Source: a virus (lineage: Duplodnaviria > Heunggongvirae > Uroviricota > Caudoviricetes). From it: a stretch of 40,058 nt of DNA. The notes beneath the pieces are model-generated. The model did not search any database. It saw only the letters and a list, made by a program, of their open reading frames with translations, and had not been told where the DNA came from. Where the stretch lies: the IMG/VR virus record IMGVR_UViG_3300028456_000007. The stretch is one strand, 5' to 3'. The position numbers were made by a program, and so were the translations under genes. Shown here piece by piece: positions 6,520 through 39,682 of the stretch (position 1 is its first letter; every line of letters begins with the position of its first letter).

Positions 6520-7098
6520 GTGGGTAAAGAACCTGAATGGAAAGTTGATAAACAACCAGCATGGCTGGTGGCAGCAATACGAAGAACGATTGCTGATTTA
6601 CCTCATGGCTATGAGGAAGCAGCAGAAATTCTTGGTTTGTATAAATCTGATGATATCACCCCAGCAAAAGATCAATTGCATAACAGACTGCGTAGCGGTG
6701 GGGATCAAATTTTTCCACTTGAGTGGGCCATGGTTTTACAGGATGCCAGTGGTACCAGGCATGTAACAGATGCAATAGCCCGTCGTAGTAATGGGGTGTT
6801 TGTGCCGCTGGTGGTCATTGATGACATTGACAATGGTGACATTAATCAGCGGCTGATGGAGTCAATAGAATGGATTGGCAAGCATTCCCAGTACTTACGC
6901 AAGGCAACTGCTGATGGAGTTATTGACCAGGCTGAGCGTGAGCAAATCGAAGAGAACAGCTACCAAGTAATGGCGAAGTGGCAGGAGCATTTAACACTGT
7001 TATTTCGTGTTTTTTGTGCGCCGGAAAAGAGTAACGCCCGCGAGTGTGCAGCTCCGGGCGTCGTGGCGTTTTGTGTCTGTGGAGAAACTAACGCATGA
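6520..7098 (+). CDS. hypothetical early-right protein (possibly CII-like regulator)
   Basis: 192-aa ORF directly after cro; family assignment uncertain. Confidence 0.35.
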   Translation: MGKEPEWKVDKQPAWLVAAIRRTIADLPHGYEEAAEILGLYKSDDITPAKDQLHNRLRSGGDQIFPLEWAMVLQDASGTRHVTDAIARRSNGVFVPLVVIDDIDNGDINQRLMESIEWIGKHSQYLRKATADGVIDQAEREQIEENSYQVMAKWQEHLTLLFRVFCAPEKSNARECAAPGVVAFCVCGETNA

Positions 7099-8467: not shown

Positions 8468-9282
8468 GTATGGAGCTGATGGTTAAAGCGATGAAAATTC
8501 GAGTGGGTAATCCATTGCGAAAACTGGTTCTGATCAAGCTGGCTGATAATGCCAGCGATCAGGGTGAGTGCTGGCCCAGCTACCAGCATATTGCTGACCA
8601 GTGCGAGATTAGCAAACGTTCTGTGATGAATCATATTGCGGCCCTTTGTGATTCCGGGCTGGTAAAAAAAGTCACCCGGAAAGGTGAAAAAGGTAACTCA
8701 AGTAATATCTATCTCCTTCATCTTGATGGTGCAGGAGATTCACTAGGGGGTAGTGCAAATAATTCACTATCTGGTGCAGCAAATTCACCAGGTAGTGCAG
8801 GAGTTGCACCAGGGGGTGGTGCAGGAGATTCACCCAGAACCAGTCACTCTTTTGAACCAGTCAAAGAACCAGTCAATGAACCAATAGCTGTTGGTGCATC
8901 TGCTGATGAGTCCGTGCGAGTTCGTTCAAACCGACCGGAATACTCTCCGGAGTTTGAGCAGGCATGGCTGGCATACCCCAAACGTGCTGGTGGCAATTCA
9001 AAATCTGCAGCCTTCAAAGCCTGGAAAGCCCGTTTGAATGAGGGGGTAAAACCCGAAACCATGCTGGAAGGTGTGAAACGCTACGCGGGCTGGGTATCTG
9101 CGATGGGTAACAGCGGCACACAATTTGTGAAACAGGCTGTCACGTTCTTTGGTCCGGATCGTCATTTCGAAGAATCCTGGGAAGTTCCTGCGGTATCTGC
9201 AGCCAGACGCGAGGACCCGTACTTCAAAGCCAGTTACGACAACGTGGACTACAGCCAGATCCCGGCAGGATTCAGGGGGTGA
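8464..9282 (+). CDS. replication initiation protein (N-terminal winged-helix domain, O-like)
   Basis: N-terminal LRKLVLIKLADNASDQGECWPSYQHIADQCEISKRSVMNHIAAL resembles phage replication-protein HTH domains; Gly/Ser linker encoded by iteron-like repeats. Confidence 0.5.
   Translation: MSMELMVKAMKIRVGNPLRKLVLIKLADNASDQGECWPSYQHIADQCEISKRSVMNHIAALCDSGLVKKVTRKGEKGNSSNIYLLHLDGAGDSLGGSANNSLSGAANSPGSAGVAPGGGAGDSPRTSHSFEPVKEPVNEPIAVGASADESVRVRSNRPEYSPEFEQAWLAYPKRAGGNSKSAAFKAWKARLNEGVKPETMLEGVKRYAGWVSAMGNSGTQFVKQAVTFFGPDRHFEESWEVPAVSAARREDPYFKASYDNVDYSQIPAGFRG
8728..8875. repeat. iteron-like direct repeats inside replication gene (candidate ori)
   Basis: five 16-bp near-palindromic units (GGTGCAGGAGATTCAC type) at 8728, 8752, 8773, 8794, 8818 with 21-24 bp spacing, then three perfect GAACCAGTCA copies at 8837, 8854, 8866. 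Confidence 0.45.
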
Positions 9283-9284
9283 TC

Positions 9285-9773
9285 ATGAGTCTTTTGAATG
9301 AAGTTCAGAAATTCATTGAAGCCCATCCGGGGTGTACTTCCGGAGACATTGCGGATGCTTTTGCAGGTTACTCACGGCAGCGCGTTCTGCAGTCAGCAAG
9401 CAAGTTACGTCAGAGTGGGCGTGTGGCTCACCGTTGTGAAGGGGATACACGCAGACATTTCCCGCGCCTGACTGAGAGAGCGCAGGAGCCGGAACCACAA
9501 CCAGTTCGTGAAACCAGACCTGTGCGCAATTTCTATGTCGGCACTAACGATCCCCGGGTGATTTTGTGCCTGACCCGCCAGGCGGAAGAACTGGAGTCCA
9601 GGGGCTTATACCGTCGTGCTGCAACGGTGTGGATGGCGGCATTCCGTGAAAGCCACTCCCAGCCAGAACGAAACAATTTTCTGGCGCGTCGTGAGCAGTG
9701 TTTACGGAAAAGCAGCAAGCGCGCTGTATCGGGTGATGAGTGGTATCTGTCAGGGAATTACGTGGGGGCTTAA
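9285..9773 (+). CDS. PerC/Pch-like transcriptional regulator family protein with N-terminal extension
   Basis: C-terminal AEELESRGLYRRAATVWMAAF ... ARREQCLRK matches PerC-family pattern as recalled; ATG 9285 after GTG 9279. Confidence 0.45.
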   Translation: MSLLNEVQKFIEAHPGCTSGDIADAFAGYSRQRVLQSASKLRQSGRVAHRCEGDTRRHFPRLTERAQEPEPQPVRETRPVRNFYVGTNDPRVILCLTRQAEELESRGLYRRAATVWMAAFRESHSQPERNNFLARREQCLRKSSKRAVSGDEWYLSGNYVGA

Positions 9774-12974: not shown

Positions 12975-13727
12975 ATGAACCTTGAAGCCTTACCGAAATA
13001 TTACTCCCCGAAATCTCCAAAACTGAGCGATGACGCACCGGCGACAGGCTCTGGTGGTTTAACAATTACGGATGTGATGGCTGCGCAGGGGATGGTGCAG
13101 TCGAAAGCACCGCTTGGGTTTGCCTTATTCCTGGCAAAAGTTGGTGTTCAGGATCCTCAGTTTGCGATTGAAGGTCTGCTCAATTACGCGATGGCACTGG
13201 ATAACCCGACATTGAATAAATTGAGTGAAGAAACCCGGCTACAGATCATTCCTTACCTTGTGAATTTTGCCTTTGCTGATTATTCCAGGTCTGCGGCAAG
13301 TAAGGCTCGCTGTGAGCATTGTGCTGGTACTGGATTTCATAATGTATTGCGCGAAGTGGTGAAACACTCCAGAAGCGGGGAATCTGTTATCAAGGAAGAG
13401 TGGGTGAAGGAACTATGTCAGCATTGTCATGGTAAGGGAGAAGTCAGCACAGCGTGTAGAGGGTGTAAGGGGAAAGGTATTGTACTGGATGAAAAAAGAA
13501 CCCGGCTTCATGGTGCGCCTGTTTATAAGATTTGTGGGCGTTGCAATGGAAACCGGTTTAGCCGTTTACCAACCACACTGGCGCGGCATCATGTCCAGAA
13601 GCTGGTACCGGACCTGACGGATTATCAGTGGTACAAAGGATATGCAGATGTCATTGATAAACTGGTTACAAAGTGCTGGCAGGAAGAAGCATATGCAGAG
13701 ACACAATTGAGAAAAGTGACAAGATAA
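12975..13727 (+). CDS. Q-like late gene antiterminator (zinc-finger type)
   Basis: CEHCAGTG...CQHCHGKG...CRGCKGKG...CGRCNG zinc-binding repeats; position just upstream of a short terminated leader and lysis genes. Confidence 0.65.
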   Translation: MNLEALPKYYSPKSPKLSDDAPATGSGGLTITDVMAAQGMVQSKAPLGFALFLAKVGVQDPQFAIEGLLNYAMALDNPTLNKLSEETRLQIIPYLVNFAFADYSRSAASKARCEHCAGTGFHNVLREVVKHSRSGESVIKEEWVKELCQHCHGKGEVSTACRGCKGKGIVLDEKRTRLHGAPVYKICGRCNGNRFSRLPTTLARHHVQKLVPDLTDYQWYKGYADVIDKLVTKCWQEEAYAETQLRKVTR

Positions 13728-13758: not shown

Positions 13759-13795
13759 TTGCATTTTTCAAAAAATATGGTTAGGATTCTCCTAA
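13759..13795 (+). promoter_or_regulatory. candidate late promoter region with 6-3-6 palindrome TTAGGATTCTCCTAA
   Basis: TTGCAT at 13759..13764; perfect inverted repeat 13781..13795; lies between Q gene and terminator. Confidence 0.3.
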
Positions 13796-13837
13796 CGATG
13801 GGCTTTGTATGTCTGCCGTTAACGAAATCATAACAAA

Positions 13838-13859
13838 CCTCGCTTCGGCGGGGTTTTTG
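13838..13859 (+). terminator. tR'-like rho-independent terminator downstream of Q
   Basis: stem CCUCGC/GCGGGG with UUCG tetraloop followed by TTTTT-G-CTTTT. Confidence 0.55.
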
Positions 13860-14869: not shown

Positions 14870-15483
14870 TGAACCAACAATTATTTCAAAAGGCGGCTGG
14901 TATTAGCGCCGGGCTGGCTGCGCGCTGGTTTCCGCACATTGATGCGGCGATGAAGGAATTCGGCATTACAGCACCAGCGGATCAGGCAATGTTTATCGCT
15001 CAGGTAGGCCATGAGTCGATGGGGTTTAGCGCCGTAGTTGAAAATTTTAACTACACACCATCTGCGCTGGTGGCGACGTTCGGAAAGAGGATCACACAGC
15101 AGCAGGCTGATGCCCTTGGCAGAACATCCGGACATGCAGCTCGTCAGGATGCTATTGCCAATCTGGTGTATAGCAACCGACTGGGTAACAAAGCACCAGG
15201 TGATGGCTGGAAATATCGTGGTAGAGGATTAATTCAAATCACTGGCCTCCATAATTATCGCATCTGTGGCGCGGCGCTGAAGTTAGATCTGGTGACTTCA
15301 CCTGAACAACTGGAACAGGAACTACAGGCTGCGCGCTCAGCTGCATGGTTCTACACCTCTAAAGGTTGCATGATCTACGGTGCCGATATTAACCGTGTTA
15401 CGCGCATCATTAACGGCGGTTTGAACGGTATTGAGGATCGTAAGGTCCGATACAACAAGGCGCGGGCGGCGCTGCTGGTATGA
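14869..15483 (+). CDS. endolysin, glycoside hydrolase family 19-like lysozyme
   Basis: FIAQVGHESMGF ... YRGRGLIQITGLHNY ... WFYTSKG motifs typical of GH19 phage lysozymes. Confidence 0.85.
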   Translation: MNQQLFQKAAGISAGLAARWFPHIDAAMKEFGITAPADQAMFIAQVGHESMGFSAVVENFNYTPSALVATFGKRITQQQADALGRTSGHAARQDAIANLVYSNRLGNKAPGDGWKYRGRGLIQITGLHNYRICGAALKLDLVTSPEQLEQELQAARSAAWFYTSKGCMIYGADINRVTRIINGGLNGIEDRKVRYNKARAALLV

Positions 15484-15872
15484 AGATGAGTTATTGGGCG
15501 CTCATTTTAACGTTTATTGCTTGTGTCGCTGGTGGTCTTGTCTGGTCAGCGAATCACTATCATGGAAAGTTTCTGAAGGAGCAGAAGCGTGCTGATGCTG
15601 CGGAACAGCGAGCTGATTCTACTGAGGCTATCACCGCGAATGTTCTGCGTACTATGGCAATAACGAACATCATTCAGGAGGCGAATCAACATGCAAAACA
15701 GCAGATCGCACTGGAGTCACAGAGAACCCAGGAAGATATCAAAGTGGCTGTTGCGGATGATGATTGTGCTTCACGTCCTGTGCCTGCTGCCGCTGCTGAC
15801 CGGTTGCGGAAGTACGCGAACAGTTTACGTCCAGGTTCCGGTAGTTCCGTTACCAGCCAGCCTGACGGCTGA
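15480..15872 (+). CDS. Rz-like i-spanin
   Basis: N-terminal TM helix then coiled-coil periplasmic domain; ATGA coupling to endolysin. Confidence 0.65.
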   Translation: MKMSYWALILTFIACVAGGLVWSANHYHGKFLKEQKRADAAEQRADSTEAITANVLRTMAITNIIQEANQHAKQQIALESQRTQEDIKVAVADDDCASRPVPAAAADRLRKYANSLRPGSGSSVTSQPDG

Positions 15873-16026
15873 ACCCCCTCAGCCTGATTTACCTGATCAT
15901 TTTACGTGGGGCTCGAGCTTAGATCTGAATGTCGCCTTGTTGTCTGCATTGGCGCAGTGTAATACCGATAAAGCTGACATCAGAAGGATTGAAGTTGAGC
16001 GTGGTCACATCATGCAAAAAAAATGA
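15757..16026 (+). CDS. Rz1-like o-spanin lipoprotein (overlapping Rz in +1 frame)
   Basis: lipobox LLTGC, proline-rich mature region; starts inside Rz and extends past its stop. Confidence 0.6.
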   Translation: MMIVLHVLCLLPLLTGCGSTRTVYVQVPVVPLPASLTAEPPQPDLPDHFTWGSSLDLNVALLSALAQCNTDKADIRRIEVERGHIMQKK

Positions 16027-16118
16027 TGTTAACTTTGTTTTGTTCCTTGATTTGATATGTGATGGCCCAATAGATACAAAGCACCTGATTTTGGTGACTC
16101 TTTTAAAGGGCTTTACAC

Positions 16119-16439
16119 ATGAAAGATGGTATCTATTTTGTTGTTTTCAGAAGCAATCAACGTGATTTTGGTAATGGTACCGTAGTTGTCAAAAACAATG
16201 CAGTAAACGGCGGAGATTTTGGTTTTACGTATCAGGGAAAAATTGACGGTAGCCAACTTATTCTGCGCGTATCGCAGCATGATTTAAATGTCACCTCGGT
16301 TTTCCCTGGGGTAAAGAACTTTGAATTGAGTCTTTCTTTGCAGGAACGAGGACGTGATTACCTGTTAAATGGATCTGTGGTCGGAATGCCTCAGATGCAA
16401 ATTTCAATTAGTGCAAAATACATTGGTGATCTGATTTAG
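16119..16439 (+). CDS. hypothetical protein (moron between lysis and packaging genes)
   Basis: 106-aa AT-rich ORF with its own downstream terminator. Confidence 0.45.
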   Translation: MKDGIYFVVFRSNQRDFGNGTVVVKNNAVNGGDFGFTYQGKIDGSQLILRVSQHDLNVTSVFPGVKNFELSLSLQERGRDYLLNGSVVGMPQMQISISAKYIGDLI

Positions 16440-16460
16440 TTTATCGAGATGATAATTGAA

Positions 16461-16480
16461 CCGCCTCCGGGCGGTTTTTT
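16461..16480 (+). terminator. rho-independent terminator
   Basis: CCGCC-TCCG-GGCGG hairpin followed by T6. Confidence 0.6.
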
Positions 16481-16531
16481 ATTGCCATTTCTATGGTCTG
16501 TTCCATCGTAATAACTTAAAGGGAAGCATTA

Positions 16532-16882
16532 ATGCCGCCACGAACCCCGAAAGCCTGCCGTGTTCGCGGCTGCCGCCATACCACTACTGACCCTTCAGGC
16601 TACTGCGAAAGCCACAAAAGCGAAGGCTGGAAGCAATACAAACCTGGACAATCCCGTCATCAGCGCGGCTACGGTTCGAAGTGGGACAGTATCCGCGCGC
16701 GTGTTCTGAAGCGTGACAAAGGCCTGTGTCAGTTATGTCTGCGTGCTGGTGTGGTGCGTGAGGCGAAAACTGTTGACCACATCATCCCTAAAGCGCATGG
16801 CGGCACTGATGCTGACAGTAATCTGCAGAGTCTGTGCTGGCCGTGTCATAAGGCGAAGACGGCCCGTGAACGGTTAAAGTGA
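16532..16882 (+). CDS. HNH endonuclease (packaging-associated)
   Basis: CxxC ... DHIIPKAHGGTDADSNLQSLCWPCH motif; immediately upstream of terminase genes. Confidence 0.85.
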   Translation: MPPRTPKACRVRGCRHTTTDPSGYCESHKSEGWKQYKPGQSRHQRGYGSKWDSIRARVLKRDKGLCQLCLRAGVVREAKTVDHIIPKAHGGTDADSNLQSLCWPCHKAKTARERLK

Positions 16883-16998: not shown

Positions 16999-17007
16999 GT
17001 GCCGCAT

Positions 17008-17502
17008 ATGGCTGGAACGGCGGGGCGTTCCGGGCGTCGCCCCAAGCCAACGGCGCGCAAGGCGCTGGCCGGAAACCCCGGCAAGCGAGCCCTGAACAAA
17101 GATGAACCTGTTTTTACGCCCATCAAAGGTGTTGAGCCACCAGAGTGGTTCGCTGAAGAAGATCTCCCTCTCGCCACGATCATGTGGCAACTGACAACCA
17201 AAGAACTCTGCGGTCAGGGCCTGCTGTGCGTGACTGACCTGGCGGTACTTGAGCGGTGGTGCGTGGCCTATGAGTTCTGGCGACGTGCCGTGAAAAATAT
17301 TGCCATACAGGGCAACACCATCACCGGTGCAATGGGCGGCAGGGTCAAAAATCCGGAGCTGACCGCCAAAAAAGAACAGGAGTCCGAGATGAGCAGCACG
17401 GGGGCAATGCTCGGACTCGACCCCAGCAGCCGCCAGCGTCTGATTGGCCTGGCGGGGCAGAAGAAAGCCACTAACCCGTTTCTGAAAATTATCGAATCAT
17501 GA
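17008..17502 (+). CDS. terminase small subunit
   Basis: AGGAG SD before ATG 17008 (track GTG 16999); basic N-terminus; ATGA coupling to large subunit. Confidence 0.75.
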
Positions 17503-19232
17503 GCCGGAAATCTTACCCCAACGTAAATGCTGCAAATCAGTATGCCCGGGATGTCGTGCGCGGAAAGATTGTTGCCTGCCAGTTTGTGATTCAGGCCTGC
17601 CAGCGCCATCTTGATGACCTGATGGCGGAAAAAAGTAAGTCGTTTCGTTACCGCTTCGACAAGGACCTGGCTGAACGGGCCGCGAAATTTATTCAGCTGT
17701 TGCCGCACACCAAGGGGGAGTGGGCATTCAAACGGATGCCCATCACGCTGGAGCCGTGGCAGCTATTTGTGATCTGCTGTGCGTTTGGCTGGGTCAATAA
17801 AGGCACCCGGTTGCGCCGCTTCCGGGAGGTGTACACCGAAATCCCCCGTAAGAACGGCAAATCAGCAATCTCTGCCGGTGTTGCCCTGTATTGTTTTGCC
17901 TGTGATAACGAGTTTGGCGCGGAAGTGTATTCCGGTGCCACGACAGAGAAACAGGCGTGGGAAGTCTTTCGCCCGGCGCGACTGATGTGTAAACGCACCC
18001 CCATGCTGACGGAAGCGTTCGGGATTGAGGTTAACGCCTCAAACATGAACCGTCCGGAGGATGGCGCGCGGTTTGAACCGCTGATCGGCAACCCAGGTGA
18101 TGGTTCATCACCCCACTGTGCCGTGGTTGATGAATATCACGAGCATGCCACCGATGCGCTTTATACCACAATGCTTACCGGGATGGGGGCGCGACGTCAG
18201 CCACTGATGTGGGCCATCACCACCGCCGGGTACAACATTGAGGGGCCGTGCTACGACAAGCGGCGGGAAGTCATCGAGATGCTCAACGGCTCGGTGCCTA
18301 ACGATGAACTGTTCGGGATCATCTATACCGTTGATGAAGGTGACGACTGGACCGACCCGCAGGTGCTGGAAAAAGCCAATCCAAATATTGGCGTGTCGGT
18401 TTATCGCGAATTTTTGTTAAGTCAGCAGCAGCGTGCGAAAAATAACGCCCGTCTGGCAAACGTCTTTAAAACAAAACACCTCAATATCTGGGTGTCGGCG
18501 CGTTCGGCGTATTTCAACCTGGTGAGCTGGCAGAGCTGCGAGGATAAATCACTGACCCTTGAGCAGTTCGAGGGGCAGCCGTGCATTCTGGCCTTTGACC
18601 TGGCGCGTAAGCTGGATATGAACAGCATGGCGCGACTTTATACCCGCGAGATTGACGGTAAAACGCATTACTACAGTGTGGCCCCGCGCTTCTGGGTACC
18701 GTATGACACGGTGTACAGCGTCGAGAAAAATGAAGATAGACGGACAGCCGAACGCTTTCAGAAATGGGTGGAAATGGGCGTCCTGACCGTTACCGATGGT
18801 GCAGAGGTGGATTATCGCTACATCCTCGAGGAGGCCAAAGCGGCGAACAAAATCAGCCCGGTCAGTGAGTCACCCATCGACCCCTTCGGGGCGACCGGGC
18901 TGTCACATGACCTTGCTGATGAAGATCTGAATCCCGTCACTATCGTCCAGAACTTCGCCAATATGTCCGATCCGATGAAAGAGCTGGAAGCAGCGATTGA
19001 ATCGGGACGCTTTCATCATGACGGCAATCCCATCATGACCTGGTGTATCGGCAATGTGGTCGGCAAAAACATGCCAGGTAACGATGATTTAGTGAAGCCC
19101 GTCAAGGAGCAGGCGGAAAACAAAATCGATGGTGCGGTTGCACTGATTATGACGATCGGTCGGGCAATGCTCAAAGAACCTGACGATTTCCTCTCATCTC
19201 TTGATCCGGACGATGATCTCTTAATTCTATGA
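17499..19232 (+). CDS. terminase large subunit
   Basis: 577 aa; Walker-type ATPase region and nuclease C-terminal region; gene order. Confidence 0.9.
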
Positions 19233-26707: not shown

Positions 26708-28609
26708 ATGGCTGATAATTTTCAGCTTAAAGCCATCATAACCGCCGTTGACAGGCTATCCGGCCCGCTTAAAGGTATGCAGCGTCAGCTTAAGGGGTTT
26801 CAGAAAGAAGTCTCCAGCCTTGCTCTGGGCGCTGCCGGGGCGGGTACTGCAATAATGGGGGCACTGGCACTCCCTGTAAAATCAGCCATCACCCTTGAAT
26901 CGAAGATGGCTGATGTCCGCAAAGTGGTGGACGGTCTGGATACGCCGGATGCGTTTAAGGCCATGACGGAGCAGGTACGCGCTTTGTCTACTGAGCTTCC
27001 CATGTCTGCAGACGGGATCGCGGAAATTGTGGCGGCTGGCGGTCAGGCCGGGATTGCACGTGATGAACTGATGCAGTTTGCCACTGATGCGGTGAAGATG
27101 GGCGTGGCCTTTGATACCACGGCTGAAGAGTCCGGGCAGATGATGGCCCAGTGGCGTACTGCGTTTAATATGACGCAGGATGAAGTGGCCGGGCTGGCTG
27201 ACAAAATCAACTACCTTGGTAATACCGGCCCGGCGAATGCGAAGAAAATCTCCGATATTGTTACGCGTATTGGTCCTTTAGGTGGTGTTGCAGGTGTGGC
27301 TTCCGGCGAAATCGCGGCAATGGGGGCAACCATTGCCGGGATGGGCGTGGAGTCAGAAATTGCCGCCACAGGGATCAAGAACTTCATGCTTTCCCTGACC
27401 GCGGGAAATTCCGCGACAAAATCGCAGAAACAGGCATTACGTTTTCTGCGGATCAATCCGAAGAAATTAGCTGCTGATATGCAGAAAGATGCCCGGGGAA
27501 CCATGCTGTCTGTACTGGATGCGATGGCTAAAGTGCCTAAAGAAAAACAGGCAGCTGTGCTGAATGCCCTGTTCGGGAAAGAGTCTCTGGGCGCGATAGC
27601 ACCTCTGCTGACTAACCTTGATTTGTTGCGTACCAACTTCAGGCGGGTTGCGGATTCCCAGCAGTATGGCAGTTCGATGCAGAAGGAATATGCTTCGAGG
27701 GCAGCGACGACGGAAAACCAGCTTTTACTTCTGCAAAATCAACTTGATGCCATTTCTTCCACTCTGGGGGAAACGTTTCTTCCTGAGGTTAATGATGGTC
27801 TTGAAGCGGTAAAACCGCTCCTTGAGGAAGTGAGAACGTTTGTCCGTGAAAACCCGGAGCTCGTTAAGACCATTGCTAAAATCGGTCTGGCTTTACTGAC
27901 AGTGGGGGCCGCTGCAGGCTCTTTGTCCAGAATCATGAAAGTTCTCGGCGGTGTGATGAATATGACGCCTGCTAAGGGGCTGATTGCTCTTCTGGTTGGT
28001 GGCGCTTACCTCATTATTGATAATTGGGAAACCGTAGGTCCTGTCATAAAAAAAGTCTGGCACGTGGTGGATGAAACGGCGCAGGCGATGGGGGGATGGG
28101 AAACTGTTCTGAAAGCGATTGCCCTGTTTATGGCAACCAAATGGGTTGCTGACGTTACCAAATCCATTACCGCAGTGACCAGAGAGATGCGTACGCTGGG
28201 GAAGGTATCGGCAGAAACGGGATTGATGGGGAAAGGCCGCGGCTTTATCGGGAAGGCCGGGGTATATGGTTTTCTGGGAACCCTGATGTATGAGCCGGTT
28301 AAAGATACTTTGGAAAGTGTTGTTCCTGAAGATACGGTTAACTGGCTGGATAATAAAGGGCTGTTTCTGGCTTCAGACTGGACGCCTTTTTTTGATCGTA
28401 AAGAGTACGAGCAGTATCAGGCCAGCCTGAGTCAGTACAAACCCAATGTTCCGCTGTTGAATCCATCTTCTTCCATGACACAGCACAGCGAGCTGAAAGT
28501 CACGTTCGAGAATGCTCCGCCAGGTATGAAGATAATTGATGTACCGGGCAAAGCCGATCCCCTGATGAAAATCACGCACGATGTGGGGTATTCTCCATTC
28601 AGACGATAA
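26708..28609 (+). CDS. tail tape measure protein
   Basis: 633 aa, Ala/Gly-rich helical, central hydrophobic segment. Confidence 0.85.
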   Translation: MADNFQLKAIITAVDRLSGPLKGMQRQLKGFQKEVSSLALGAAGAGTAIMGALALPVKSAITLESKMADVRKVVDGLDTPDAFKAMTEQVRALSTELPMSADGIAEIVAAGGQAGIARDELMQFATDAVKMGVAFDTTAEESGQMMAQWRTAFNMTQDEVAGLADKINYLGNTGPANAKKISDIVTRIGPLGGVAGVASGEIAAMGATIAGMGVESEIAATGIKNFMLSLTAGNSATKSQKQALRFLRINPKKLAADMQKDARGTMLSVLDAMAKVPKEKQAAVLNALFGKESLGAIAPLLTNLDLLRTNFRRVADSQQYGSSMQKEYASRAATTENQLLLLQNQLDAISSTLGETFLPEVNDGLEAVKPLLEEVRTFVRENPELVKTIAKIGLALLTVGAAAGSLSRIMKVLGGVMNMTPAKGLIALLVGGAYLIIDNWETVGPVIKKVWHVVDETAQAMGGWETVLKAIALFMATKWVADVTKSITAVTREMRTLGKVSAETGLMGKGRGFIGKAGVYGFLGTLMYEPVKDTLESVVPEDTVNWLDNKGLFLASDWTPFFDRKEYEQYQASLSQYKPNVPLLNPSSSMTQHSELKVTFENAPPGMKIIDVPGKADPLMKITHDVGYSPFRR

Positions 28610-28673
28610 TATAACTACTTTAATCAAGTAGGGTTATTGAGTGGTAAAGTTTGTGCTGAATGTAGGAGAGAAT

Positions 28674-29162
28674 ATGAAGAAAATGTTTATATTGTTGTTG
28701 GCTGTAGGACTGCCATTAAACTCCTTTGCGAAGCCAGTAACGGAAAAGCAGCTTGCTACATACTTTATAGATAACGTTAAAACTTCAGCGGATAAGAATA
28801 TAGATCTAGATGTAGAGGGAATAAATAGACTGTCTGTAATATGCCCAGCAAAGTCGGCAAGTGGAACTCTTTTAATAAAAAAAGCATCCTACGAGTTTAA
28901 TAAAAGCATTGGTGCTTTTGATTTTGAAAATAACTCACAATCTGCACCATTGACTTTTATTGTACCAATTAGTGAGGATGAAAATAACTTTGACTCGGAA
29001 ATTATTGGTTTCTCTTTTGCATTTAAAATGCCAAGAGGGCAATTCTTTGTTGATGTTACGAAAACAGGGAAGGTAAAGGCTGGCGTAAATATTAGTGGTG
29101 AAAGCGGAATTACTTATTCATCATGTAGAATAGATACTCATAATGTTGATTATGATCGTTAA
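28674..29162 (+). CDS. secreted hypothetical protein (moron inside tail operon)
   Basis: AGGAGA SD before ATG 28674 (MKKMFILLLAVGLPLNSFA signal peptide); strongly AT-rich; own terminator. Confidence 0.55.
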   Translation: MKKMFILLLAVGLPLNSFAKPVTEKQLATYFIDNVKTSADKNIDLDVEGINRLSVICPAKSASGTLLIKKASYEFNKSIGAFDFENNSQSAPLTFIVPISEDENNFDSEIIGFSFAFKMPRGQFFVDVTKTGKVKAGVNISGESGITYSSCRIDTHNVDYDR

Positions 29163-35017: not shown

Positions 35018-35610
35018 TGAAACCTGTATTTGATGAAAATGACCTGGCAACAGAGGCGGGCAACATCCGTTGTTTCTACTTCGATCCTGTAACGTTCGAA
35101 TATACTGGCTGGTCTGACGAATATATTAATGTTGGTGTAAGCATGCCTGGCCATTCAACAGATATTGACCCAGGTGATGAAGTGGACGGAAAAATTGCAG
35201 TGTTCACAAACGGTCAGTGGGAGCTGTACGAGGACCATCGAGGGGGCGCGGTTTATTCAACAACCGATGCTTCAGCCGTTACGGTGGACTATATTGGCCC
35301 GGTAAAGGATGGTTACACCATCCTTGCACCTTCAGGCCCATACGATAAATGGGATGGAGAGAAATGGGTGACCGATACTGAGGCACAGCATAGCGCCGCA
35401 GTAGACGCGGCAGAAGTACAGCGTCAGTCACTGATTAATACTGCAATGGCTTCCATTAGTCTGATTCAACTTAAATTGCAGGCCGGGCGGAAGCTGATGC
35501 AGGCAGAGACCACCCGACTTAACACTGTGCTGGATTACATTGACGCGGTGACGGCAACAGATACCAGCACAGCGCCGGATGTCATCTGGCCTGAACTGCC
35601 GGAGGCGTAG
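35017..35610 (+). CDS. tail fibre assembly protein
   Basis: Tfa-like sequence directly after fibre gene. Confidence 0.8.
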   Translation: MKPVFDENDLATEAGNIRCFYFDPVTFEYTGWSDEYINVGVSMPGHSTDIDPGDEVDGKIAVFTNGQWELYEDHRGGAVYSTTDASAVTVDYIGPVKDGYTILAPSGPYDKWDGEKWVTDTEAQHSAAVDAAEVQRQSLINTAMASISLIQLKLQAGRKLMQAETTRLNTVLDYIDAVTATDTSTAPDVIWPELPEA

Positions 35611-36019
35611 GCCATTCAATATCTGGCACACTGGAGGTATCAACCAGCTCCAGTGCGTCCAGGTAATCCAGCCACAAATTATATTGCGCCAGTTCCTCGT
35701 CTTTCAGACGACCAATAGCGGCTTTACCGGGCCATTGTTTACTGTTCATGTATTCGTTGGCCTGATTAAGCAATAATTGCCTTTCTGATTCTGCCTGTTG
35801 AATAAGTTCTTCATGTGATGGTGAAGGTATTAGTGCCCATGTGGGTAATCCATTTTCTCCTGCAACACGAATTTTGCCATCTGGGGGCGTATTTATTGCA
35901 AATTCATTATAAACATCGTCACTGACAGCCAGAGCATCATCTGGCCATGAATTTGCATTAATGTAATCATCCTTAAGTGCAGGATTCACAAAAATGTTTA
36001 AAGATGGACTATAAAACAT
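35582..36019 (-). CDS. alternative tail fibre assembly protein (paired with silent fibre variant)
   Basis: Tfa-like sequence on opposite strand, convergent with the other assembly gene. Confidence 0.75.
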   Translation of the reverse strand: MFYSPSLNIFVNPALKDDYINANSWPDDALAVSDDVYNEFAINTPPDGKIRVAGENGLPTWALIPSPSHEELIQQAESERQLLLNQANEYMNSKQWPGKAAIGRLKDEELAQYNLWLDYLDALELVDTSSVPDIEWPTPPAVQAR

Positions 36020-36020
36020 A

Positions 36021-36356
36021 TTACACCCCTATAGCGATATAACGACCTAATACAGCGTTTGCAGCAGTCGCTATGCTTGAAAAACCGCGGAACTGATTTG
36101 ATGTAATTGCAGAAGCCGACAGGATTCCTGCGCCTGAAGGTGTATGCCCCACATGACTAACTATCATTACATAACATGCTGACGGAAAGGCAAAAGGAAA
36201 ATCATTAAGATATCCGGCATCTTCACCACCAGACCCACCAAATCTCGCCTGCCCCCACTGAATAATCAGTGTTCTCCGGGAACCTGAAATAATTAACGGG
36301 ATCGTTACATACCCATTCAGGCCAATGACACCCGATGCAGTGCCAGCCAGAGATAA
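36021..36356 (-). CDS. alternative tail fibre C-terminal segment, silent in this orientation
   Basis: reverse-strand reading frame continues from the right crossover site (GLGELSLAGT...) with no own ATG; in-frame stop just outside the site. Confidence 0.6.
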   Translation of the reverse strand, partial: LSLAGTASGVIGLNGYVTIPLIISGSRRTLIIQWGQARFGGSGGEDAGYLNDFPFAFPSACYVMIVSHVGHTPSGAGILSASAITSNQFRGFSSIATAANAVLGRYIAIGV

Positions 36357-36382
36357 TTCTCCCAAACCAACCTTTCAAATAT
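36357..36382. other. hix/gix-like recombination site (right)
   Basis: reverse strand ATATTTGAAAGG-TT-GGTTTGGGAGAA; inner half identical to left site, outer half divergent. Confidence 0.55.
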
Positions 36383-36441
36383 TTTTCTGAATCAGGTGAT
36401 ATTTCGCCTCTTCTCCTGTTTTTACAACAGGAGAAGCACTC

Positions 36442-37005
36442 ATGATTTACGGGTATGTTCGTGTATCAACAAATCATCAGGATACAGAGTTGCAACGTCT
36501 TGCACTTGAGTCAGCTGGCTGTGAGCGAATTTATGAAGAATATGCCAGTGGCAGAACAGCTAATCGCCCTGTGTTAAAGGAATTAATTACGGTGATGAAA
36601 AGTGGAGATGAGTTGATTGTCTGGAAGTTAGATCGGATAGGGAGAAATGTGCTGCATGCGCTATTGATGTTTCAAAATCTGCACGAAAAAGGTGTTAATT
36701 TTCGGAGTATTACAGATGGCGTAGACCTGAAAACAGCAAGTGGTCGCTATAATTTCCGTAATATTCTTTCTGCTGCGCAGTATGAATCTGATTTGAATAG
36801 CGAGCGAACTTTAGCTGGTTTGGCTATTGCCAGATCCAAAGGCCGGATTGGTGGGCGTAGACCGAAGTTTAGCGACGAGCAGTGGCAACAGATGGGAGCG
36901 CTCATAGCGGCAGGGAAATCACGGCGTTATGTTGCACGTATCTATAACGTTGGGCTATCAACCCTATATAAACGATTTCCTGTTACTGGCATTCAAACGA
37001 AATAA
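36442..37005 (+). CDS. DNA invertase, serine recombinase (Pin/Gin/Hin/Cin family)
   Basis: YGYVRVSTNHQ catalytic Ser motif, resolvase-type N-terminal domain, C-terminal HTH; AGGAGAA SD. Confidence 0.9.
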   Translation: MIYGYVRVSTNHQDTELQRLALESAGCERIYEEYASGRTANRPVLKELITVMKSGDELIVWKLDRIGRNVLHALLMFQNLHEKGVNFRSITDGVDLKTASGRYNFRNILSAAQYESDLNSERTLAGLAIARSKGRIGGRRPKFSDEQWQQMGALIAAGKSRRYVARIYNVGLSTLYKRFPVTGIQTK

Positions 37006-37458: not shown

Positions 37459-38556
37459 TCAAGAGGTCTTATTTCTGCTCCTTTGGAGCTCTTCAAAACG
37501 ATTATGTAAAGATTTCGGATACAGTTCGGTATATACCTGCCATAGCACGTTTAATGAACGATGCCCTGTAACCTGGGCGACTTCCTCAATACTAAAACCA
37601 GCCTCAAATAAGCGACTTGCCCCTTCTCTACGCAAATCATGGTATCGCAGATCTTTAATACCTAATTTGCTTCTTACCCTCTGGAATCCCGCAGTAACAG
37701 AAGTGCTGTTATATGGAAAAATGAATTCTGATTTTTTGGGTTGTCGTTGGACGATATCCCAGGCTTCCCCAAGCAAGGCTACTTTCATATGGTTGCCTTC
37801 CTTTTTACGTGGATCTTTCCTGTCTCTTACGAGTATGGATTTTTGTTCCTGATCGAGATCCTCCCATCGTAATCGGCATACTTCACCGATTCGCATACAT
37901 GACCACACAGAAAATTTGAGGATATCAACGAACGGAATTTTTGAGCATTTATGTGTAGATCGTTGTTGAAGACCTTCAATGAGCATGTCCAGTTCATCAG
38001 ATGCCGGTCTACGATTACGACGATTTGATTTACCAATTAAACCAAGTTTAAGTAGATATGGACGAGCGGCTTTTGCTGGGTTTGATGTGTAATTAATTCC
38101 ATATACAGGTTTGGCAGCATCCAGAACACTGCCAAGATAACTAACATCGTGGCTAACTGTAGCTGGACCTGCACCAGCGTTGTTTCTTAGCCTGCAATGT
38201 TCAATTACGTCATTTTCTGTCAGTTCAGATAGTTTGATCGCGGAGATGTCACTATCCATAAGCAGTTCCAGCACATATCTTTTAGTACGGCCTGCTTTAC
38301 CTCCGGCATTTGGGTCATTTAAATATTTGTGTAGTAAGTCACGGACTGTAAGTCCGTCAACTGCATTTGATGATGGAATGCCATATAGATCTAATTCCAT
38401 CACTTTCTGTGTGCCCCATGTTTTGGCATGAGCATGTTTAGGGAATGTTTTGCTTTCCCTGTAAGTGATAACACCTTTTTCTTTGATAATCACATTACAG
38501 CGATAGCGTGGTGTGCCATCGGATTTTAGTCGTTTCTCTATGTTATAGTACGCCAT
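37459..38556 (-). CDS. int: tyrosine site-specific integrase (dusA-associated type)
   Basis: C-terminal catalytic pattern HDLRREGASRL ... TGHRSLNVLWQVY; adjacent to 5' end of dusA. Confidence 0.9.
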   Translation of the reverse strand: MAYYNIEKRLKSDGTPRYRCNVIIKEKGVITYRESKTFPKHAHAKTWGTQKVMELDLYGIPSSNAVDGLTVRDLLHKYLNDPNAGGKAGRTKRYVLELLMDSDISAIKLSELTENDVIEHCRLRNNAGAGPATVSHDVSYLGSVLDAAKPVYGINYTSNPAKAARPYLLKLGLIGKSNRRNRRPASDELDMLIEGLQQRSTHKCSKIPFVDILKFSVWSCMRIGEVCRLRWEDLDQEQKSILVRDRKDPRKKEGNHMKVALLGEAWDIVQRQPKKSEFIFPYNSTSVTAGFQRVRSKLGIKDLRYHDLRREGASRLFEAGFSIEEVAQVTGHRSLNVLWQVYTELYPKSLHNRFEELQRSRNKTS

Positions 38557-38644: not shown

Positions 38645-39682
38645 ATGCACGATAATCATGAAACACAAAAAATTAATCAAACCAGCGTGATGCCTGAAAA
38701 AACTGGTGTTTACTGGAATTCTCGGTTTAGCATTGCTCCTATGCTCGACTGGACGGACAGACATTGCCGCTATTTCTTGCGTCTGCTTTCCCGCAATACG
38801 TTGCTGTATACCGAAATGGTGACCACAGGGGCGATTATTCACGGTAAAGGTGATTACCTGGCGTACAGTGAAGAAGAACATCCGGTAGCGTTGCAACTCG
38901 GCGGTAGCGATCCGGCGGCGCTGGCACAGTGTGCGAAGCTGGCAGAAGCGCGTGGATATGATGAGATCAACCTGAATGTCGGCTGCCCGTCTGACCGGGT
39001 GCAGAACGGCATGTTTGGTGCGTGTCTGATGGGTAATGCGCAGCTGGTTGCCGACTGCGTGAAAGCGATGCGCGATGTGGTGTCGATTCCAGTGACGGTG
39101 AAAACGCGTATTGGCATCGATGACCAGGACAGCTATGAATTTCTCTGCGATTTCATCAACACCGTTTCCGGCAAAGGCGAGTGTGAGATGTTTATCATCC
39201 ACGCACGTAAAGCCTGGCTTTCGGGGTTAAGCCCGAAAGAAAACCGTGAAATCCCGCCGCTCGATTATCCGCGTGTGTATCAACTGAAGCGTGACTTTCC
39301 GCATCTGACAATGTCGATTAACGGTGGTATCAAGTCGCTGGAAGAGGCCAAAGCACACCTGCAACATATGGATGGCGTGATGGTCGGGCGCGAGGCGTAT
39401 CAGAATCCGGGTATTCTGGCGGCGGTAGACCGGGAGATCTTTGGTTCCTCGGATACCGATGCCGATCCAGTGGCGGTAGTGCGCGCCATGTATCCGTACA
39501 TTGAGCGTGAACTCAGCCAGGGGACGTATCTCGGCCATATTACCCGGCATATGTTGGGCTTGTTCCAGGGTATTCCTGGCGCGCGGCAGTGGCGGCGTTA
39601 TTTAAGTGAAAATGCCCATAAAGCGGGTGCAGACATTAATGTGCTGGAACACGCGCTCAAACTGGTGGCGGATAAGCGTTAA
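38645..39682 (+). CDS. dusA: tRNA-dihydrouridine synthase A
   Basis: 345-aa ORF recognised as DusA from memory of the E. coli protein; TIM-barrel Dus pattern (NLNVGCP ... K-x-R); conserved host neighbour pspG follows. Confidence 0.9.

Follow-up and report, generated by a model that had tools for sequence, protein, structure and literature searches.

A solitary GrlR-family gene with its own terminator in a cargo slot of an Escherichia prophage

Introduction

What is a small, AT-rich gene doing between the lysis and packaging genes of a prophage, and how far can the regulator name that databases give to its product be trusted? The question is raised by a stretch of Caudoviricetes DNA of 40,058 nucleotides (IMG/VR virus record IMGVR_UViG_3300028456_000007; hereafter the window, meaning the whole stretch), in which an open reading frame (ORF) of 106 amino acids occupies 16119..16439 on the plus strand. 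An earlier note on this DNA had described the ORF as distinct in composition, preceded by an AT-rich gap with a promoter-like region and followed by a hairpin terminator, and had read it as a moron expressed in the lysogen; the protein itself had not been recognised. Here we show that the protein is a genuine member of the GrlR family and that it is not an orthologue of GrlR, the repressor of type III secretion from which the family takes its name. The reading of the region as a one-gene accessory cassette is largely supported.

Results

The product is a GrlR-family beta-barrel

The Pfam GrlR profile (PF16518) aligned to the protein over its whole length (profile positions 1–110 of 110; E 6.6e-6) with a score of 26.7 bits, 0.1 bit short of the gathering score of 26.8, and most of the close homologues carry a precomputed PF16518 match. 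The NCBIfam GrlR equivalog model (PRK14051) was also matched (E 2.4e-10), but with only 40.5 bits where the cutoff is 205, and thus below the equivalog level. PHROG 2483, a group listed as of 'unknown function', gave a full-length match (E 6e-53), and a phmmer search of the PDB returned GrlR itself (2OVS and 4KT5; E 1.6e-10; residues 1–105). An AlphaFold2 (AF2) model built from 86 homologues (predicted local distance difference test score, pLDDT, 93.8) has eight strands, which form a single-domain antiparallel beta-barrel superposable on GrlR. Finally, the identical RefSeq protein WP_000651450.1 has been named 'GrlR family regulatory protein' by the Prokaryotic Genome Annotation Pipeline (PGAP). 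These matches, together with the model and the existing name, show that the protein truly belongs to the GrlR fold and family. The protein can thus be recognised after all: the remote-homology and structure-prediction check that the earlier note had proposed leads to the GrlR barrel, and a match to a known structural protein, which that note would have counted against a moron, was looked for and did not occur.

The ORF is a real gene, since it has homologues of constant length (91 of them, 49–93% identical and all of about 106 amino acids), since a search of 1.84 billion representatives recovered 505 clusters at 50% identity (nearly all of them stand-alone proteins of 105–125 amino acids), since the ratio of non-synonymous to synonymous substitution rates (dN/dS) is 0.04–0.26 where computable, and since the fold is predicted confidently and matches a solved structure. 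That it might instead be a chance ORF in an AT-rich spacer, encoding no functional protein, is suggested by its small size and atypical composition and by nothing further; set against the family just described and a dN/dS well below 1, we regard this as scarcely conceivable.

Beyond GrlR, the neighbouring folds include those of the Cap15 cyclic-dinucleotide receptor, avidins and YceI. A search of the BFVD viral structure library gave no match below E 8e-3, a scan with the PADLOC-DB 2.0 defence-protein models gave 0 families at E <= 1, and the protein has neither a catalytic nor a DNA-binding motif, nor a signal peptide. Two rare fusions were seen, which are too sparse to carry functional weight. 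In one, a single case of 211 amino acids (P0201) that may have arisen from faulty gene calling, the GrlR-like barrel is preceded by a DUF4325 (STAS-like) domain at the N terminus; the other has no Pfam match. STAS domains are partner-switching protein binders.

The protein lacks the features on which GrlR is known to act

GrlR belongs to the LEE (locus of enterocyte effacement), where it represses by binding, as a dimer, the helix-turn-helix of GrlA in a GrlR2–GrlA complex (PMC9979310). A surface EDED motif (E46–D49) is essential both for binding GrlA and for repressing LEE1, and opposite charges aid the interaction, GrlR having an isoelectric point (pI) of 4.83 and GrlA one of 9.71; the dimer interface comprises I7, I23, I25, V39 and I107, and a hydrophobic cavity in the protein bound detergent in the crystal (PMC1868957). 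In addition, GrlR has a GrlA-independent repressor activity in E. coli K-12, and 'orthologs' at 30–42% identity, with no assigned function, have been noted in several genera (Lara-Ochoa et al. 2023, PMC9979310). Our own literature search for phage GrlR-like proteins, PHROG 2483, PF16518, WP_000651450 and the GrlR of strain H10407 produced nothing relevant.

Our comparison of GrlA contacts with GrlR covers the EDED residues. In the window protein these align to G44-S45-Q46 followed by a gap. Across the 86-member alignment the equivalent hairpin is hypervariable, typically reading (Q/E/D)(G/D)(G/N/D)(R/K), and with a mean entropy of 2.0 bits it is the most variable short segment of the family; EDED is absent throughout the phage family. 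The pI of the window protein is 8.0. Its gene is flanked immediately by those for Rz1 and an HNH endonuclease, with no grlA beside it. To our knowledge most of its carriers, which include enterotoxigenic E. coli (ETEC) H10407 and uropathogenic E. coli (UPEC), and most hosts of its relatives (Klebsiella, Serratia, Arsenophonus, Pectobacterium and Pseudomonas) lack the LEE. On these four grounds the window protein is not a GrlR orthologue.

The pattern of conservation elsewhere in the protein is uneven. The residues that align with the GrlR dimer interface are I5, T21, V23, T37 and I102, two of the five being threonine rather than isoleucine or valine; all are invariant or nearly so in the phage family except T37, which is moderately conserved. 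Inward-facing residues are likewise conserved or invariant (Y6, V8, F10, V22, V24, L47, L49, V51 and the alternating hydrophobic residues of strands 6–8). The outward-facing positions of strands 5–8, together with the EDED-equivalent hairpin, are highly variable, and variability is 0.60 bits in the N-terminal half of the protein versus 1.59 bits in the C-terminal half.

The gene lies in a variable slot between the lysis and packaging genes

The cassette and its neighbours are arranged as follows.

15480–15872, plus strand: Rz, left neighbour; with Rz1, one of the spanin genes that close the lysis cassette
15691–16026, plus strand: Rz1/LysC, the second spanin gene, embedded
16027–16118, plus strand: AT-rich non-coding gap of 92 nucleotides, from the Rz1/LysC stop codon (16024–16026) to the ATG of the ORF
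16052–16080, plus strand: best sigma-70-like candidate promoter, weak; TTGATA (16052–16057), a 17-nucleotide spacer and TACAAA (16075–16080)
16106–16110, plus strand: Shine-Dalgarno-like AAGGG, 8 nucleotides 5' of the ATG, read directly from the sequence
16119–16439, plus strand: GrlR-family beta-barrel gene, 106 amino acids, ATG to TAG; PHROG 2483; product identical to WP_000651450.1
16458–16480, plus strand: Rho-independent terminator with an 8-bp GC-rich stem, a UCCG loop and a run of six T
16532–16882, plus strand: HNH endonuclease gene, right neighbour and first gene of the packaging module
16999–17502: TerS
17499–19232: TerL

The order upstream is Q (12975–13727), two holins, a glycoside hydrolase family 19 (GH19) endolysin and Rz/Rz1; downstream of the HNH gene, TerS and TerL come the portal gene and the remaining structural genes. 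The gap has a G+C content of about 0.35–0.37. The G+C content of 16027–16480 is 0.390 versus 0.503 for the whole window, a value as low as which is found in only 3.8% of windows of the same size (454 nucleotides). In these respects the earlier description stands: the ORF is present exactly as claimed, its composition is distinct, the gap 5' of it is AT-rich, and it lies between the lysis and the packaging genes. Homologous loci have GAGG or AAGG at an equal distance from the start codon. An Rfam scan of 15800–16700 gave no known RNA element, only two sub-threshold chance matches, and where insertion scars, att-like sites or other repeats were sought on either side of the cassette, only short chance repeats turned up.

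Comparison with related prophages showed that the position is a variable cargo slot, because relatives that share the HNH and terminase genes hold other cargo there. Three relatives in which the start of the HNH gene is 91–96% identical carry unrelated ORFs between the lysis cassette and that gene:

L003: two hypothetical ORFs
L004: a reverse-strand ORF of 68 amino acids
L005: an ORF of 168 amino acids

Relatives without the cassette become homologous to the window no more than a few bases from the start codon of the HNH gene. When the region around the cassette was used as query, their alignments started at query positions 629–653 and mostly at 631–633, which correspond to window positions 16530–16532.

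A second kind of exchange is seen in the prophage of strain ACN002 (L002 2850–3730, compared with window 15850–16620). Here the 3' end of Rz1, the gap and the HNH gene are shared and the holin and endolysin are different. The gap is about 97% identical and the flanks are about 97–100% identical overall; the gap is not conserved in Klebsiella or other genera. Within the gene itself the first 50 or so nucleotides are shared and the remainder has been replaced, such that the ACN002 allele has 54% amino acid identity overall and 33% over residues 41–106, with synonymous divergence (dS) saturated. Near-identical flanks around an anciently diverged allele point to exchange of the cassette or allele. 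We considered diversification of the two E. coli alleles in situ and rejected it, since a divergence this ancient indicates allele replacement; with dS saturated, dN/dS between the two is uninformative on positive selection.

Taken together, these results largely support the reading of the region as a moron, that is, an accessory cassette of a single gene, placed where the spanin genes end and the HNH–terminase genes begin. The variable slot, the foreign composition and the gene's own terminator all agree with it; an autonomous promoter, for which the best candidate is weak, is its least secure part.

The terminator is strong and conserved, and the candidate promoter is weak

The hairpin (GAACCGCC-UCCG-GGCGGUUU, 16458–16477, with the T-run extending to 16480) begins 18 nucleotides 3' of the stop codon. 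It was picked up by a terminator scan and its fold energy is -17.2 kcal/mol (z = -3.3 against dinucleotide shuffles), which bears out the hairpin terminator claimed in the earlier note. Indeed, an intrinsic terminator directly 3' of the stop codon was present in most of the 32 phage, plasmid and chromosomal loci scanned.

The candidate promoter TTGATA-17-TACAAA has a position weight matrix score of 8.2, within the top 5% of 150-nucleotide windows in the surrounding +/-6 kb; the base frequencies of the matrix follow published compilations. Some homologous loci have far better sites: Pectobacterium (L016) has TTGCAA-16-TATAAT, and in Klebsiella and Serratia rubidaea the -10 box reads TATAAT. As a separate observation, the best promoter-like match of a 5-kb scan (10/12) was antisense and inside the GrlR-like ORF: TTGACA-16-CAAAAT at 16165–16192 on the minus strand, upstream of an antisense ORF of 55 amino acids (16113–16280). 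In DNA this AT-rich it may be a chance match.

Downstream of Q, the region 13759–13856 has an arrangement like that of PR' and tR', with a TTGCAT-17-TAGGAT promoter-like site followed by a strong hairpin terminator (13835–13856), and this marks the start of the Q-dependent late operon. Given the terminator at 13835–13856, the structural genes downstream of 16480 need an antiterminated polymerase, and therefore the terminator at 16458 would act only on Q-independent transcripts. A strong and conserved terminator that is useful only against ordinary polymerase would thus favour, indirectly, some Q-independent transcription of the gene.

Homologues travel without a conserved neighbour

Homologues were found in the following settings.

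After the spanin genes and before the terminase: Klebsiella (L007–9), Serratia (L024, L025), Scandinavium (L026) and Escherichia sp. (L027)
Between Q and the holin: Arsenophonus (L006, beside Kiwa KwaAB), Salmonella (L013–15, beside HigBA) and Providencia (L023)
Decayed prophage remnant: Pectobacterium (L016–18)
MOBQ plasmids of 6–8 kb, beside RelE/RelB: Acinetobacter (L019, L020)
Plasmids: Pseudomonas syringae (L021)
IncF plasmid p24399, L022 1896–5327: Salmonella, in the order CaiF/GrlA, hypothetical, DUF3440, ParB-N, GrlR-like
Beside VgrG/Tli4 of a type VI secretion system (T6SS): L010 5001–9933
Beside a Rap1a immunity gene, itself after an ORF of 849 amino acids with no Pfam match: L029 241–5321
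Beside GmrSD_N and RiboL-PSP HEPN genes: L033 77–2185

In one of the Serratia prophages (L024) the order HNH–TerS–TerL–portal is kept at amino acid identities of only 31–79%. The last three settings are conflict-system islands that hold non-phage copies. Since the terminator recurs while no neighbour is conserved, the mobile unit is the ORF plus its terminator.

The Salmonella plasmid p24399 is a non-LEE GrlA–GrlR-like pairing. Its GrlR-like gene lies 2.6 kb downstream of the CaiF/GrlA-family gene, on the same strand and with three genes between, and encodes a protein that is 37–39% identical to the window protein and also lacks EDED. The intervening DUF3440 and ParB-N genes resemble the IbrA/IbrB pair. 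Kiwa genes (KwaA/KwaB) occur near the GrlR-like gene in the Arsenophonus prophage (L006 3405–5324) and in that of Serratia rubidaea (L025 832–5321). We set aside a meaningful link, as there are two such loci only and both genes occupy generic cargo slots.

The host prophage

The window is prophage DNA and matches both Escherichia phage SKA5 and a prophage of ETEC H10407, the 701 bases around the cassette being 100% identical in the two. The phage is a temperate myovirus integrated at dusA, its head being HK97-type and its tail contractile: the integrase gene (37459–38556, minus strand) abuts dusA (38645–39682), and the tail has a Mu-like baseplate. Of 5,426 complete E. coli genomes, 54 carry an identical cassette; the carriers include ETEC H10407 and UPEC, and some are named Shiga toxin-producing E. 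coli (STEC) or O103:H2.

Several other regions of the prophage deserve mention. The left end (1–2375) is a block of low G+C content (0.35–0.37) that encodes a protein with a Panacea/SocA-like antitoxin domain (1–573), an overlapping ORF of 139 amino acids with no Pfam match (570–989) and a CoiA-like nuclease (1341–2375); the first two may be a PanA-type toxin–antitoxin cargo pair. The island of lowest G+C content in the window (0.33; 28641–29162) holds an ORF of 173 amino acids with no Pfam match, between the tape-measure gene (26708–28609) and the DNA-circularisation gene, and is a second moron candidate, in the tail module. A serine invertase (Resolvase plus HTH_7, 36442–37005) adjoins oppositely oriented tail-fibre C-terminal and assembly genes (35582–36365), and the region 35582–37005 looks like a host-range switch of the Gin/Cin type. 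A CII-like ORF lies at 6520–7098. Lastly, the early region contains a PerC-family ORF (9279–9773; Pfam PF06069, E 1e-9). PerC/Pch proteins are LEE activators in enteropathogenic and enterohaemorrhagic E. coli (EPEC and EHEC), so that the phage carries homologues of one LEE activator family (PerC) and of one LEE repressor family (GrlR).

Discussion

On balance we consider it probable that the locus is a GrlR-family cargo cassette whose product is a non-enzymatic binder. Such a protein would be small and soluble, and neither an enzyme nor a DNA binder; it would form a dimer, act stoichiometrically, and bind and sequester a partner through its variable face. The likeliest partner would be a regulator's DNA-binding domain or some other protein of a conflict system, and not the GrlA of the LEE. 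The repression that GrlR exerts in K-12 independently of GrlA shows the GrlR fold to be capable of acting on something that is generic to E. coli. While the protein presumably dimerises, sequestration of another protein is a specific mode of action that we put forward only tentatively. As to expression, the gene would be read within the Q-antiterminated late transcript during lytic growth. In the lysogen, any Q-independent transcript that arose locally, be it from the weak TTGATA-17-TACAAA site or from another, as yet unrecognised promoter, would be stopped by the terminator at 16458–16480 such that the packaging genes stay silent.

Several observations weigh against this account. No gene co-travels with the family: an all-against-all BLAST of the neighbours in 21 distant loci revealed no conserved partner gene, the neighbours that were shared being confined to near-identical or closely related pairs of loci, and a Pfam scan of eight window ORFs, early-region regulator candidates included, gave no CaiF/GrlA match. 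The variable surface could be merely unconstrained rather than a binding face. Moreover, ligand binding is equally compatible with the structure, because GrlR has a cavity that bound detergent in the crystal and other barrels of the same fold bind ligands. With regard to transcription, a consensus scan of the gap (16027–16118) gave no sigma-70 site; the candidate at 16052–16080 was missed because its -10 hexamer, TACAAA, lacks the near-invariant final T. The promoter-like region of the earlier note is thus borne out in that a candidate exists, but this is weak and its -10 hexamer defective. A literature search found no transcriptome or expression data for the locus. Finally, no empty Rz1–HNH junction was present among the genome matches, and insertion is therefore deduced from how the contents of the slot vary and not by comparing filled with empty sites.

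Three other explanations need to be set beside the cassette reading. If the protein were a functional GrlR, it would be a prophage-borne repressor of LEE type III secretion that binds GrlA. The homology is real, the same prophage carries a PerC-family ORF, some carriers are named STEC or O103:H2, and the GrlA-independent activity of GrlR works even in K-12. However, the score of 40.5 bits falls far from the equivalog cutoff of 205, EDED is absent from the whole phage family (the window protein having G-S-Q and a gap), a pI of 8.0 does not complement a basic GrlA as that of GrlR does, there is no grlA nearby, and the ETEC, UPEC, Klebsiella, Serratia, Arsenophonus and Pseudomonas carriers and homologue hosts are not known to have the LEE. 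We therefore judge this explanation to be very improbable. Somewhat better placed, though still unlikely, is a late lytic gene with no promoter of its own, transcribed only as part of the Q-antiterminated operon and acting around lysis or late host takeover. The gene adjoins the lysis cassette in each of the 11 prophage-type contexts examined, following Rz/Rz1 in some and lying between Q and the holin in the others, and it is on the same strand as the lysis genes in all nine contexts in which these are called or annotated; the window promoter is weak, and in no E. coli genome was the window-type 3' end of Rz1 found unless a GrlR-like allele followed. Yet the Q-to-holin and Rz-to-terminase slots are generic cargo hot spots in lambdoid phages, and adjacency to lysis genes is therefore expected for any moron. 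The family also occurs where there are no lysis genes, both on plasmids (those of 6–8 kb in Acinetobacter, and others in Pseudomonas and Salmonella) and in islands of the chromosome, and it has been kept intact in a decayed Pectobacterium remnant common to several genomes. In addition, a terminator within the late operon would be pointless for a purely late gene.

The remaining explanation is that the protein does not regulate transcription but is a barrel that binds a ligand, or a component of a conflict system: for instance it could, as a sponge, take up a hydrophobic or nucleotide signal, or it could serve as an immunity- or antitoxin-like binder in competition between phages or between bacteria. 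The hydrophobic cavity of GrlR, the Cap15, avidin and YceI folds, and the frequency of toxin–antitoxin, T6SS and defence neighbours all fit such a role. On the other hand, neither PADLOC nor BFVD gave a match, the similarity to Cap15 and avidins is at a generic fold level only (6–13% identity), conserved interior residues are expected in any barrel core, and cargo slots and islands collect unrelated genes, which makes neighbourhood weak evidence. We give this explanation rather little credence. A more far-reaching reading is that orphan GrlR-fold barrels are a sequestration module of mobile elements, in which a conserved dimeric scaffold presents a hypervariable face, the EDED-equivalent hairpin included, to a variable target; that target would be the regulator of a rival phage or plasmid, an effector of the T6SS or toxin kind, or an immune signal of nucleotide type, bound as it is in the Cap15 barrel. 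This is a speculation to which we attach small weight, but if true it would define a class of single-gene conflict or anti-defence factors, of which the GrlR of the LEE is one domesticated member.

Returning to the cassette itself, the family to which the protein belongs was already annotated in databases and its homologues outside the LEE had been noted in the literature, and the protein is an ordinary member of it. What is added here is that the ORF and its terminator form a solitary mobile unit, which occupies cargo slots of prophages and occurs also on plasmids and in conflict islands, and that the hairpin with which GrlR binds GrlA has the hypervariable part of the phage family as its counterpart. 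The family is a compact and widespread cargo gene (505 clusters) that moves alone, its settings being prophage slots, plasmids and islands of T6SS or defence genes. In practical terms the value of these results is modest. Names such as 'GrlR family regulatory protein' and 'negative regulator GrlR' invite the wrong conclusion that prophages control type III secretion; since the features of GrlR's known mechanism are absent, the name should be read at the level of the fold only. Should the variable face prove to be a specificity determinant, it would show a GrlR–GrlA anti-activator pair arising from a mobile-element protein.

How, then, does the locus compare with systems already known? Morons are said to have been defined by Juhala et al. 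and Hendrix et al., both in 2000, from comparisons of HK97, HK022 and lambda. The lambda genes bor and lom are classical morons, and a sigma-70 promoter is part of the classical definition. Like these, the window cassette is extra DNA of lower G+C content between conserved late genes, consisting of one ORF and a factor-independent terminator, and its slot holds different cargo in relatives. It differs in that a convincing sigma-70 promoter is not evident and that no relative with an empty site was found. The GrlR of EHEC, EPEC and Citrobacter rodentium (PDB 2OVS, 4KT5; PF16518) shares the fold, but that LEE repressor has the acidic EDED hairpin and a pI of 4.8, whereas the window protein is without the motif and has a pI of 8.0; and grlR lies in the LEE with a co-operonic grlA, whereas the window gene belongs to the late region of a phage, has a terminator to itself and has no adjacent grlA. 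The pair on Salmonella plasmid p24399 resembles the window in that a GrlR-family protein occurs outside the LEE; there, however, a CaiF/GrlA-family regulator is nearby, which is not the case for the window copy or for any of the prophage copies examined. As for the group gathered under PHROG 2483 and the PGAP name 'GrlR family regulatory protein', the window protein belongs there, and nothing about it is different in kind.

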